Source of the DNA: Thermodesulfobacteriota bacterium
GTDB lineage: Bacteria; Desulfobacterota_D; UBA1144; Nemesobacterales; UBA2774
NCBI GenBank assembly: GCA_963422265.1
Contig: OY729416.1
Coordinates: forward strand, 1,504,001 to 1,568,000
DNA: 64,000 nt
Reading direction: 5' to 3'
Part shown: piece after piece, positions 1 to 64,000 of the stretch
Numbering within the stretch: position 1 is the first letter of the stretch
Layout: each line of letters opens with the position of its first letter
Program-made: the position numbers

Positions 1-3000
1 ATATTGTAAAAGGGGTTCTGGACTTCAAAGTCAAAGGAGCAGTTATCAAATATGTGGGACGGTGTAGGGAGAATAATGAGAAAGGGAAAACTATTTCGTT
101 CATCAAGCTGTTTTATCTTATAGATTTTCTTACAGGCGCGCTTGCTTTTCTCGCGGCGGTCTTGCTAGCGGGCATTGCGGACAGGTTTTTTATCAAGTCG
201 GAAAGCGCCTTTGAATTGGTCTTTATTTACTCTTTTGCTCTTTTTGTTTCAACAGTCAATACAAGTTCCCGTGCGATTCTGGAAGTTTTCGAGAAGTTTG
301 GCAATGTGGCTGTTGCGGACACCTTTGGGATTGGGGTGAGGGTTGGCTTTGTTCTTGTGTTTCTTGCCGCGGGGTTCGGAATAAAAGGCGCTTTTACGGG
401 TTATGTTGCAGCGACTTTTTTGCATTTTTCCGTTTTGCAGTTTCTTGTGAATCGCGCTTTGGTCAGTGAGGAATTGAGCGGGTGGCTTAGCGCAAGCATT
501 GGAACGGTGGCGAATGAATTCAGGAATGTTCTTTCATTTGTTATGAGCTTAACTGTTTCAGCATTTTTAAACAGAGTTCTGAACAGAAATTTCCCCATAC
601 TTGTTCTGGGACATTTTTTCACAAGTGAAATCTCTGGGCTCTACAAGGCATCAACCGCTTTTTCAAAAGTGGTGAAAAACTTGAAATCTCCGGTAAAGAG
701 ATCGATTTATCCCGCTCTTGTTAGACTTGAGCAACACGGTGCTTACGGTGATTTCAAAAAACTTGTTTTCTACTCAATAGGATTTGTGGCGAAATTTTTT
801 GTTCCTGTCGGAGCCATATGTTTTATATTTGCGGACGACATTATAAGTATTTTCTTTGGGACGGAATTTGCTCCCGCGGCAAATGCGATGAGGATTTTTG
901 TGGTTGTGGAGGTTTTGTCCGGGCTTTCTTTCTGGACGTCTCCCGTCTATCTCTCATTGGGAAGGACATGGTTCGTAACAATGCTGTCTCTTCTAGGTGC
1001 TTTGTTTTATACGGTTTCGCTATTTTATCTTTCCGCTGCCTATTCGTTTGAGGGCGCGGCTTTGGCAAGACTTGCCCCTTATCTTGTTACACTGCCTGCG
1101 GCTATTTTTCTTTTCAGAGAGATAAGGAGGAGGAGCAAAAAACAGAGTTTTTAGACTGACTACTTACTGGCAGATTCAACAACCTCCCGAAACAGTTTTT
1201 CATGTTCTGAGACTGTTTTTTCAATGGTGAAGTTCTGCGCTCTTTTACGCGCGTTTTGAGACAGCTTTTCTCTCAGTTTACCGTCTTTCAATATTCTGAC
1301 AATCGCCCCTGCCATTGCCTTAGGATTTGCGACCGGGACGAGAAGTCCATTTTTGCCGTCTTCTATCATCTCATTAGCACCAAATTTGTGGTCGGTGCTG
1401 GCAATTGGAAGTCCAAGGGCTAAAGCTTCAAGCAATGAGTTTGAAAATCCCTCGTAAAGCGATGAAGAAATGTAAAGGTCCGCCGCTTTCATAAACGGAT
1501 ACGGATTCGGTTTTTCACCAACCAGTGATACACGGTTACCGAGATTCAATCTATCAATTTGAGTTAGCATCCTGCGCTTTACCCCTTCTTGTTCCCGACC
1601 GCCGACTATCATAAGTCTTGCTTTTACAGTTTGGTTCACAATTTCGAGGGCTTCAATAAGGTGAGGAAATCCCTTTGCTGGAACGAGCCTTCCAACTGAA
1701 ATAATAAGTGGAGCATCTTTGTCGTCTAGCCAGGGGTGTTTCACAATTTCACGGCTTTTTTTCTCTATTAATTCAATATCCAAACCGTTGTAAATTACAT
1801 GCGGTCTTGATTTAAGCTTCCAGAATCTCTGCGCCTCGTCTGCCAATCCGTATGAGTTTGCCACTATTTTTGTGGAAAGTTTCCTGCTTGATTTTCGCAC
1901 AAGAAAGGTCTGCAATCCGTGCGGAGTCCATAAGCTTGTTCTCATTTTTCGTGAAGGATTGTTAATCTCCGCCATTACCACAGGTATTCCCAGAATTTTC
2001 CCAACAATAGTTGATGGTAAGGGCATAACCCGTGAGTAGATGATATCAGGCTTAAAATCTCTTGCGGCATGCCAGACCGCAACTGCCTTCAGGATAGATT
2101 TGAGTGGCCATCTTTCAGTCAGGTTAAGTTTGGAGTATATGATGTTTCTTTCTATTTCTGGGGGATAAACTCCTGAAAATCCACCTTCCTTTTTCATAAT
2201 AAAGAGGGATGTTCCTTCTATATTCCTCAATCTAGCAAAGCCTTTCGCCAAATTTAAAATTTGTCTTTCTGCTCCTCCGATTTCAAGGTGTTGATTTACA
2301 AACATCACTCTCAATGTCTTTGGTCCCTTAATATACTGTCAAATAGATTCATATACTTTGCGGTCATTGTTGCAACGCTGAAATGCCTCGCTCGCTTTTT
2401 TGCCTCTTTGCCCATTTCCGCGGTGAGGGCTTTGTTCTCAATCAGTCTCAAGATAGCGTCTGCCATTTTCGCTGGTTGTCCAACTGGGACGAGAATCCCG
2501 CTTTTTCCATCCTCTATTATTTCATCTGCTCCATATTTGTAATCGGTTGAGATGATGGGCATCCCAAGTGCAAGGGCTTCAGCAATGACAAGTCCAAATC
2601 CTTCAAAGATTGAAGAGCAGACACAAAGATCACATTTCACTGTGTATTTGTGGGGATTTCGCATTGGTCCAACCAGGTCGATTTTATCTTTTACTCCGAG
2701 ACTTTCGGCTTGTTCCATGAGTTGATTTTTCAGTTGCCCGCCGCCGATTATCAAAAGCCTCATAGATCTCGTTTCATTGACAATGCTTACTGTCTCGACG
2801 AGGTATTTGTATCCTTTCTGGGGTTTGAGTCTTCCAACGGCAACGGCAATAGGAATGTTATCGTCAAACCAGTGGTGCACAACTTTTTCTTTAGATTTTT
2901 CAACTATTCGGTCTATATCTAACCCATTGTGAATTGTAGAAGCATCAACGCCGAGCATTGCGGCGATTCCATGTCTGCCTTCATCGGATATGGAGACAAC

Positions 3001-63000: not shown

Positions 63001-64000
63001 CCTGTTTCCGTTCTCACGTGGTTAGGCAGTTTTTTATATTGTCCAGGAATGATTTCCTTTTGGGTTTTTTGACCGTCAGTGGTTAAGGCTTCCTTCCAGA
63101 AAGGCTCTTTCAGGATGATTTTGTTCAAGTCTCTTACGTCAGCTTCGGTGAGATTTCTCTCTTTATCCTCTGCAAACTCCTTTACCGTATTTATTGCCAC
63201 ATCGTGGGCTTTCATTTCCATATAGTCTCGCTGTGGATGAATTCCTGTCTCTTTTCCTTCTATAAGCAGAAGTTCCGTCTCGCCGTAGGTCAGGGTGTTT
63301 CCCTCAATGTGGTTTGAGTTCCAGTTCCAATCAAGCCGCATTTTCTTCCACAGCCGTTCATAGTCCTCCTGCTTGAGTGGTTGTAGTGAACGCCATTCTT
63401 CATATAGTTCTTCAATGCTCTTGTTCACGTCTTCAAGGGACATTTGCATTTCTCCAGTTTACTTCAAGATGTAAGTGAGAAGATTGGTTGACAGCTTTAA
63501 TTGGGAGTTGGTTTGGGGTAAAAGTTTTCGTAATCTGTTCCTCCCTGAATACAGCTTTATAATTAACCTTATTCTTAATTCTTCAGTCTTCGGATCTCCT
63601 CAATCTCCGTTTTCTTTGTCTTGTGTCTGTAATCTCTGGGGTCTATGCACTCGTCATACATTTTTCTTTCAATCTTTATCCAGTCAGTGTTGTTGATTCC
63701 CCGATTGTTGTCGTATGTCTTACTTACGGGGAAGGCACTTGCAATTTTGATCCAGCGGTTTTCCCGTCTTGCGATGTATCTCACCTCTTTTGCTACTTCT
63801 GACAAGTCCTGATCCTGACTTAGGATGACGGCGACGTTGCACTTATCTTCAAACACCGCCCTTGTAACGTCAAGCGCAAGCCGAACGTCAATACCCTTTT
63901 CCCGTCCGACGAGGACAGGTTTTGATGTTTTTCCAGAGTTGACCTTAGTCTTTGAGTAAAAGAGAGAGCGGGAAAACGTGTATATGCCTTTCTCTTTCAT

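Follow-up and report, generated by a model that had tools for sequence, protein, structure and literature searches.

Duplicated groEL genes are usually described as diverged; what, then, keeps two distant groESL operons of one chromosome nearly identical? The window analysed here (positions 1,504,001–1,568,000 of contig OY729416.1, 64,000 nt of the forward strand, assembly GCA_963422265.1, a genome labelled G000 whose family is the uncultured Ca. Dadabacteria) lies over its whole length (1..64000, no strand assigned) inside the 137-kb stretch that separates the two operons, and holds neither. Upstream of it, the M locus carries groES–groEL on the plus strand (contig 1434723–1436715; GroES of 95 aa, GroEL of 548 aa with a Gly-Met tail) together with its syntenic marker, two plus-strand genes that we take, on a motif match, to be mutS and a yraN-like gene (1431539–1434552). 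Downstream of the window, the T locus carries groES–groEL on the minus strand (1573204–1575214; a 95-aa GroES identical to that of the M locus, and a GroEL of 554 aa whose tail, PPSVGG, is of the T type), marked by tsaC (Sua5/YrdC) and DUF1015 (1575596–1577451, plus strand). Within the window, an mfd–surA–cupin–hsp20–orf block (window 49127..55789, no strand assigned) represents the downstream flank of the T locus and is conserved in G010, G011 and G032; in G000, about 12 kb of restriction-modification-type genes separate it from DUF4872–groEL. Between both groESL loci, and upstream of the window, lie dnaA and four DnaA-box matches before dnaN (1483011–1484717, plus strand), a region that is likely oriC. 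Both operons are transcribed towards it in G000; in G009, G010 and G032 both run the other way, and in G011 the two differ. Next to the T locus of G000 the skew is locally flat or inverted, so that a recent inversion is possible. Our genome labels differ from those of the initial annotation, and the two sets cannot be mapped onto each other.

The near-identity of the operons, put at 99.4% by the initial annotation, is borne out by self-BLAST, which aligns 1434723–1436678 with 1575214–1573256 at 99.387% identity over 1959 nt, with the open reading frames at the same places. Identity begins at the groES ATG and persists to groEL nt 1574, after which the tails diverge; this homogenised tract (1434723–1436642) contains only four differences in 1920 nt, at groEL nt 1053, 1113, 1230 and 1273, the last exchanging Gly and Arg at residue 425. 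Promoters and tails do differ between the copies, as had been claimed: an M-type promoter-like motif (1434599–1434628, plus strand) lies about 124 nt 5′ of groES, outside the homogenised tract and conserved at the M loci of relatives, a T-type motif (1575303–1575332, minus strand) lies about 118 nt 5′ of the other groES, and the T-locus tails of G000, G011, G020 and G032 carry a motif specific to that locus, P-[SQ]-[VI]-G-G. The GroES of G000 is itself a mosaic of five M-type and seven T-type diagnostic residues.

The surroundings of the operons agree with the earlier view that they are no recent duplicate. The flanking genes recur in relatives, mutS–yraN at the M locus and tsaC–DUF1015/DUF4872 at the T locus, with the same M and T flanks in five genera of the family and the M flanks also in families f2, f3 and f4, and two distinct promoter types are each confined to their own locus in all nine M and all eleven T aligned upstream regions. 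Synteny and locus-specific promoters thus place the duplication before the divergence of the species compared. One locus labelled M, that of G034, is uncertain, its GroES grouping with T. No CIRCE element was found within three mismatches upstream of groESL in G000, and hrcA was found in none of four family genomes and in the one f2 genome searched; the groESL of G000 does not fall into the HrcA/CIRCE-regulated class.

Against this background of locus-specific surroundings, the groEL genes group by genome. Both copies were recovered in seven of the 33 family genomes searched (G000, G008, G009, G010, G011, G020 and G032, from five genera), and in all seven they group as the initial annotation had proposed, with DNA identities of 94.5–99.6% within versus 70.9–91.0% between genomes and every within-genome pair starred or identical in the tree. 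In each of eight family quartets, 125–435 groEL sites favour grouping by genome versus none by locus. In the three species of genus g2, groEL DNA is 99.3–99.6% identical within versus 89.5–91.0% between genomes, whereas in the three g2 quartets 49–55 groES sites group by locus versus 1–3. Across genera groES is near saturation (the G020/G032 quartet has 12 locus-grouping, 10 genome-grouping and 14 crossed sites), and M is only weakly set apart from T in the GroES tree. Because the identity of groEL extends to synonymous sites, purifying selection alone is excluded as its cause (criterion of PMC6053082). In six relatives, and likewise in G049 of family f4, the tract has a sharp 5′ boundary no more than about 30 nt from where groEL starts. 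The groES identity within relatives, given earlier as 48–58%, amounts to 56–68% once aligned. The earlier claim that conversion extends beyond groEL holds for G000, where the tract covers groES, but this is not unique to it, as G058 of another family behaves likewise. At least two groES matches were found in 24 of the 33 genomes, one in eight and none in one, many of them adjoining a contig end; contig breaks account for most of the missing groEL matches.

The sister family f2 converts groEL only in patches. Its groEL pairs are 85–86% identical, with identical runs of 41–89 nt, and have 98 locus-grouping versus 27 genome-grouping sites; since most informative sites there group by locus, homogenisation is not order-wide. 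The identical runs in f2, and the patchy, clustered differences between the copies of G020, are what piecemeal conversion tracts would leave. As had been noted, the f2 copies are less alike and the mutS–yraN copy has a His-rich tail, a feature confined to f2; both tails in G000 are of the Gly-Met type. Grouping by locus, the mark of diverged duplicate chaperonins, is thus found in f2 and not in the family of G000, and a copy with a His-rich, non-Gly-Met tail is likewise absent from G000. A reading in which only the apical domain escapes conversion in f2 was ruled out, as locus-specific residues also occur at 5–25 and 426–452.

Could assemblers or polishers have homogenised two divergent copies, a concern raised at the outset? 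Repeats break many of these assemblies, and the copies are indistinguishable as far as groEL nt 1578 in G011 and 1532 in G032, but scattered differences persist between those of G008, G009, G010 and G020. More directly, in three short-read assemblies of the species of G000 (three runs from three studies), groESL forms a single 1.94-kb contig joined to both flanks at about twice their depth (95 versus 52/43, 36 versus 20/16 and 102 versus 49/50). Logan contigs drop variants, so that this check bears on the collapse and is silent on strain-specific letters in both copies; the collapse at double depth nevertheless means that the reads themselves are near-identical, which refutes an artefact for this species and leaves it extremely improbable overall. 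Separate recent duplications in each lineage, or one recent overwriting of a locus in G000, would account for groES, spacer and groEL being common to the G000 copies as one block. We consider this very unlikely, however, given that different genera have these two sites, these promoters and the T tail in common, that the groES of relatives remains locus-specific and that the GroES of G000 mixes both types.

We therefore hold it highly probable that an ancient groESL duplication has been followed by recurrent groEL gene conversion between fixed loci, which upholds the proposal of concerted evolution of the tufA/tufB kind on the old duplication, the grouping of groEL by genome and the grouping of g2 groES by locus. 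Comparison of the genes and their flanks demonstrates the old duplication, the homogenisation by genome and the tract limits. The duplication would have preceded the radiation of the family, and probably much of that of the order, the two operons remaining at fixed sites flanking dnaA, each with its own promoter. Intrachromosomal gene conversion would then repeatedly have copied groEL between the loci, outpacing synonymous divergence between congeneric species. The tract of most family members begins at the groEL ribosome-binding site and ends near codon 525 or at the stop codon; that of G000 has crept over groES as well, and the one GroES that is left combines residues of the M and T types. 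By analogy with Salmonella tuf, we infer that the transfer is a RecA-type non-reciprocal recombination; recA (by motif) and mutL (by family search) are present. Selection presumably keeps two operons that make one interchangeable homo-oligomer subunit, the candidate gains being dosage under two promoters and freedom from mixed-ring interference.

On top of this history, though with less certainty, a long stay in a converting pair may have raised G and A on the coding strand at the expense of C or T. Ranked by C at four-fold sites, the 11 poorest genes of G000 are ten near-identical duplicates and one gene between them, and the coding strands of the duplicates have C4 of 0.007–0.06 and G4 of 0.38–0.48, versus 0.21 and 0.21 genome-wide. 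Along the M-locus groEL, C occupies 0–2% of four-fold sites in the first four fifths and 22% in the last fifth, tail included. The shift is shared by the two tuf genes, our positive control (802233–803432 and 922683–923882, minus strand, upstream of the window; 1200 nt identical, tuf pairs in the same genomes being 97.2–100% identical), and by a thiolase/OB-fold/MaoC/AmiS-UreI and two-ADC-family cluster, also upstream, whose two copies (890773–896181 and 1298438–1305622, minus strand) are 99.5–99.9% identical in G000; in copy B, a single-copy thiolase and a 179-aa gene are partly shifted. An ESM Atlas search with the ADC-like protein returned the ADC family only. Substitution spectra against the consensus of relatives are near saturation; where that consensus is not C, the ADC genes carry C at 0 of 73 sites, and fusA and rpoB at 11 of 72. 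A search for related loci with GroEL yielded 80 distant loci and no family member; the 54 with enough flank were reused as a composition control. An amino-acid drive was considered and not established: changes to versus from G number 16 versus 4 in EF-Tu and also 49 versus 28 in RpoB, and GroEL has only 11 replaced residues.

These patterns hint that genes held identical by conversion tend to a G/A-rich, C-poor coding strand because the copying itself is biased. We tentatively suggest, at somewhat less than even confidence, a strand-biased conversion in which a coding-strand G (then A) allele beats C (or T), producing C-poor, G-rich pairs whose signature would fade after loss of a copy; the G allele might win if the heteroduplex always forms from the same pairing of strands and its mismatches differ in detection or tolerance, so that tuf, groEL, groES and the thiolase/ADC cluster would be driven C-poor whatever codon selection does. 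Very high transcription, through deamination of the non-template strand or mRNA selection, could act instead, the highly expressed genes being the duplicated ones. A coding strand that loses C and gains G from A is in keeping with deamination of single strands, the single-copy thiolase between the duplicated blocks has a C4 of 0.04, an identical cluster pair on a 34.9-kb contig of G011, which may be an assembly overlap, is unshifted, and two further near-identical repeats of G000 (97% over 2015 nt and 98.8% over 561 nt) have ordinary composition. Yet R4 is 0.36–0.47 in fusA, the co-oriented gene directly 5′ of tuf, versus 0.54–0.84 in tuf; dnaK, clpB, tsf, atpD and gap are unshifted; and the rise in T expected from pure deamination does not occur. 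Moreover, groES is shifted only where converted (C4 of 1/41 in G000 versus 5/42 to 19/37 in 13 copies from relatives), and groEL, purine-shifted in two-copy families (0.50–0.87), is not so in the 18 genomes of three single-copy families (0.33–0.45). Transcription thus seems an unlikely source of the shift. Mutagenic repair synthesis during conversion, with a strand-specific spectrum rather than a biased choice of allele, would fit a shift that is confined to tracts, found in non-coding spacers and weaker near tract ends, but it would have to be very frequent to bring C to 1–2% of four-fold sites, and we regard it as rather doubtful.

Duplicates of groEL are a standard example of divergence. 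Here one ancestral pair has met three fates, namely conversion in patches alongside a His-tailed copy, conversion of all of groEL and conversion of the whole operon, and copies have repeatedly been lost besides; the lineage offers a natural series in which to ask what holds paralogues in concerted evolution or lets them escape. The groEL (cpn60) copies record the history of the genome and not of the locus, and groEL is lost from many bins as a collapsed repeat. If conversion causes the composition shift, a non-selective force has taken C from 21% to 1–2% of four-fold sites; trees or codon-usage indices that use tuf and groEL may then be biased, and biased conversion in bacteria becomes testable through copy-number contrasts. 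Strand-biased conversion, if real, would further allow composition alone to flag present and past converting duplicates, as a strand-asymmetric counterpart of GC-biased conversion.

GC-biased gene conversion is a non-selective, recombination-tied bias that shifts base composition. The shift seen here is strand-asymmetric instead of GC-directed: in G000 the strand that gains G loses C, where GC-biased conversion favours both, symmetrically between strands. For conversion or near-identity between chaperonin paralogues there is precedent in the euryarchaeal chaperonins, among which Archibald and Roger reportedly described gene conversion in 2002, and in the near-identical groEL1/groEL2 of Sinorhizobium meliloti; to our knowledge, neither is a family-wide, synteny-anchored case of bacterial groEL.

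The closest parallel is the concerted evolution of tufA/tufB, modelled in Salmonella (PMC5485169) and found across 29 orders (PMC6053082). Like groEL in this family, these are dispersed ancient copies, told apart by context, near-identical at synonymous sites and converted within a gene-bounded tract. Unlike them, the gene here is groEL, the tract varies by lineage (patches, groEL only, or groES and groEL) and the tail escapes in four genera. The groEL pair shares the properties by which the published survey, in its main text and tables, recognises concerted evolution, being synteny-assigned paralogues in at least five species with synonymous similarity and a homo-oligomeric product. The gene groEL itself is absent from the 19 bacterial genes in the tables of that survey and from its main text. 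What is new here is a composition shift marking converted tracts; in the same main text 'purine' and 'GC content' do not occur and 'codon' occurs once. The diverged multiple chaperonins, GroEL1/GroEL2 of Myxococcus and the His-tailed paralogues of actinobacteria, as treated in PMC11978752, likewise have two groEL loci with different promoters, and f2 resembles them with its His-tailed copy at 85–86% identity. In contrast, the family of G000 has homogenised copies with Gly-Met tails, the opposite outcome from an ancestral pair that it has in common with f2.

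The two groESL operons of the genome under study, G000, a single 1.78-Mb contig, hold its only two GroEL matches, neither of which is within the window: one lies downstream of mutS-yraN on the forward strand (M locus, contig 1434723-1436715) and one on the tsaC-DUF1015 side on the reverse strand (T locus, 1573204-1575214). By self-comparison the copies are 99.387% identical across 1959 nt, with a shared tract that starts at the groES ATG, crosses the spacer and holds four differences as far as groEL nt 1574; their upstream regions and tails are unlike each other. Across the seven family genomes, from five genera, in which both copies were recovered, groEL identity is 94.5-99.6% within genomes versus 70.9-91.0% between them, and each of the seven pairs is either identical or starred in a tree of 34 rows. 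In each of eight family quartets, the groEL sites that unite copies of one genome number 125-435, and no site unites copies of one locus; for groES, the three quartets from genus g2 have 49-55 locus-grouping against 1-3 genome-grouping sites, while cross-genus groES quartets (locus/genome/crossed 18/6/7 and 12/10/14) are weak or uninformative. The tract starts within ~30 nt of the groEL ATG in six relatives, and the clustered differences of the G020 pair fit what piecemeal tracts would leave. The initial annotation had described the copies as near-identical and grouping by genome, and had read this as concerted evolution; both the description and the interpretation are upheld, with groEL homogenised and groES locus-specific in genus g2.

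Genomic context indicates that the duplication is old. Where assembled, the M copy lies 3' of mutS-yraN and the T copy between tsaC-DUF1015 and DUF4872, with dnaA between the two loci in five of five genomes. One promoter-like motif is common to 9/9 M upstream regions and another to 11/11 T regions, and each type stands at its own locus in G000; the T copies of G000, G011, G020 and G032 are set apart by the tail motif P-[SQ]-[VI]-G-G. These shared flanks and locus-specific motifs confirm the earlier statement that this is not a recent duplicate and that the loci are syntenic across the family, which is assigned to Ca. Dadabacteria because the RpoB of relatives falls in sequence clusters labelled Candidatus Dadabacteria or Thermodesulfobacteriota. 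Among 33 family genomes, groES matches number at least two in 24, one in eight and none in one; groEL is matched in 22 of the 33, many truncated by contig ends. T loci of genus g4 (G012, G015, G017 and G020; L014, L018, L013 and L009) carry an extra M-type promoter-like motif 3' of the T-type one, upstream of groES. G000 GroES has M-type residues at 13, 15, 18, 64 and 74 and T-type residues at 2, 19, 58, 83, 86, 88 and 90, a mosaic that two-way conversion would fit better than one overwrite, homoplasy being possible in so short a protein.

Both G000 operons are oriented towards the likely origin, unlike those of G009, G010 and G032, and GC skew is flat over ~350 kb around dnaA (contig 1350000-1700000), which together suggest inversions near oriC. 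In G000 the mfd-surA-hsp20 block and the T locus are separated by a type I restriction-modification region (hsdR, an hsdS fragment and hsdM; window 56357-63449 and contig 1567575-1571795) among whose genes are interspersed those for DUF5131, Fic, NYN and AAA-DUF4143 proteins; G010, G011 and G032 show no such separation. Two operons might be kept for dosage near the origin, with two promoters and one subunit type; gene-balance and paralogue-interference ideas for retained duplicates are discussed in PMC6053082.

Possible homogenisation by assemblers was checked at the M locus in three short-read assemblies, each from a different study. In all three, groESL forms one contig of ~1.94 kb at about twice the flanking depth (95 vs 52/43, 36 vs 20/16 and 102 vs 49/50); its loose ends, one where groES starts and one in the tail, are readable as the T locus. 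This single double-depth contig rules out an assembly artefact as the cause of near-identity in the species of G000; short-read contigs drop variants, so it is the near-identity of the copies that is shown, not phased alleles. Assemblies X5 and X6 are other strains, differing from G000 at 23/2752 and 17/2756 upstream letters, and X1 may be the source sample of G000.

The wider comparison covered 98 genomes of at least 90% completeness. In family f2 (G035, G037), M and T copies are 85-86% identical, and 98 groEL quartet sites group by locus and 27, patchily, by genome; the M copy bears a His-rich tail, a feature known in Actinobacteria (PMC11978752). The 83% groEL pair of G046 (f3) groups by genome, G049 (f4) repeats the family pattern of divergent groES with groEL identical as far as the contig break, and in G058 (f8) both copies are identical from 5' of groES to the contig break. 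By eye, the G058 loci L236 and L238 carry CIRCE-like inverted repeats 5' of groES, behind differing promoter types. No CIRCE within three mismatches was found upstream of groESL in G000; hrcA was found in none of four family genomes searched and is present in G037. A single groEL match is the rule in families f6 and f9 and in genus g25 of f8, often in closed genomes. G080, from a single-copy genus, holds a second groESL (L218, G080:C8), 63% identical and with a His-containing tail, which is possibly acquired or a binning stray.

Converting pairs are associated with a shift in composition, an association that does not itself explain the cause. Among 1053 G000 ORFs of at least 600 nt from a simple ORF caller, the C share at four-fold coding-strand sites (C4) averages 0.213 (sd 0.052). 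The 11 lowest genes (0.007-0.061) are both copies of tuf, groEL and three thiolase/ADC-cluster genes, and one single-copy thiolase that sits between duplicated blocks; the next-lowest gene reaches 0.093. At the two-fold purine sites of eight tabulated duplicated genes the G share is 0.86-1.00, compared with 0.47 for the genome, and ATA accounts for 0.73-1.00 of their Ile codons, compared with 0.45. For groES, C4 is 1/41 in G000 and ranges from 5/42 to 19/37 across 13 unconverted copies, and the purine share at four-fold sites (R4) of ADC homologues is 0.69-0.71 in G000 and 0.38-0.53 at one locus each in 19 relatives (23 with a match). Compared in 45 genomes at the loci returned by the searches, groEL R4 is 0.50-0.75 in 18 family genomes, 0.55-0.87 in seven of f2 and 0.33-0.45 in 18 of f6, f8 and f9, these few families not being independent of one another; in three f6/f8/f9 genomes duplicated tuf has R4 0.54-0.68 vs 0.36-0.40 for fusA. 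Distant groEL loci (54 of 80 with enough flank) shift over their neighbours by a mean of -0.09 and at most +0.08. Two uncultured gammaproteobacteria, G108 (L224, L221) and G112 (L229, L231), have G-rich, C-poor duplicated tuf (G share at four-fold sites up to 0.82 vs 0.42 in fusA); the signature therefore extends beyond Dadabacteria.

The G000 cluster of thiolase, OB-fold, MaoC, AmiS-UreI and two ADC-family genes occurs twice (contig 890773-896181 and 1298438-1305622; L031, L032) at 99.5-99.9% identity. Relative to the ancestral order, copy A is circularly permuted and lacks two genes, which are still partly C-poor in copy B. At the main locus, ADC-family proteins from different members of the family share 86-96% identity, a degree of conservation that is unusual when a gene's role is unknown.

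We tentatively attribute the shift to biased allele choice during conversion, with somewhat less than even confidence. By analogy with the Salmonella tuf model, double-strand breaks would be repaired using the paralogue as template, and one dominant strand pairing with unequal mismatch correction could favour certain coding-strand alleles. As a rule, mismatches that contain C are the most poorly recognised and the least stable, from which the sign of the bias is not predictable. The mutL gene was found in five of five genomes. In Salmonella tuf, conversion is two to three orders of magnitude lower when mismatch repair operates, MutS corrects some mismatches better than others, and conversion declines near the gene end (PMC5485169). 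In our tracts C4 is 7/82 within 100 nt of the ends vs 18/1096 deeper (p 0.001), the edge counts coming mostly from groESL, where the effect was first seen. In non-coding spacers within tracts the C share is 0.03-0.06 in three, 0.11 in two and 0.20 at a terminator-bearing end; codon choice alone therefore fails to explain the shift. Expression effects and mutagenic repair synthesis seem to us less likely sources, the one as likely as the other.

The association has exceptions. Two further G000 dispersed repeats, at 97.0% (contig 617762-619776 and 1108459-1110473) and 98.8% (752377-752937 and 768528-769088), have ordinary composition, as does the identical cluster pair of G011; no shift is seen in the G046 pair, and a weak one in G032 and G025. 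G047 and G048 have a single groEL, yet R4 is 0.64-0.66, explicable only by assuming recent copy loss, which G049 makes plausible. The form also varies: G000 loses C, several relatives mainly lose T and gain A or G, and in these T-over-C at two-fold sites runs opposite to G000. Outside the class, two tuf matches occur in four of ten genomes searched, two shifted (R4 0.63-0.68 and 0.85) and two unshifted. G000 also has large adhesin-like genes of ~285-nt repeats, 85-94% alike between loci (contig 304000-323600, 855500-868500, 957200-963500 and 1040600-1047300); in three of them the G share of two-fold purine sites is 0.80-0.81, an intermediate shift.

Concerted evolution of dispersed duplicates is already known, and groEL is not among the 19 bacterial genes listed in PMC6053082. 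A limited search by title and abstract start found no report of groEL gene conversion, or of a strand-specific or purine bias among bacterial duplicates that undergo conversion, which does not imply absence from print; the literature listed on duplicate groEL emphasises divergence. Chaperonin gene conversion reportedly has a precedent in archaea, and Sinorhizobium meliloti has a near-identical groEL pair. The groEL of the G000 family adds a new example of concerted evolution of the tuf type, with lineage-specific tract length, that also bears a strand-specific composition signature associated with conversion. It resembles the tuf system in its homogenised duplicates and differs in the gene concerned, groEL being better known for divergence.
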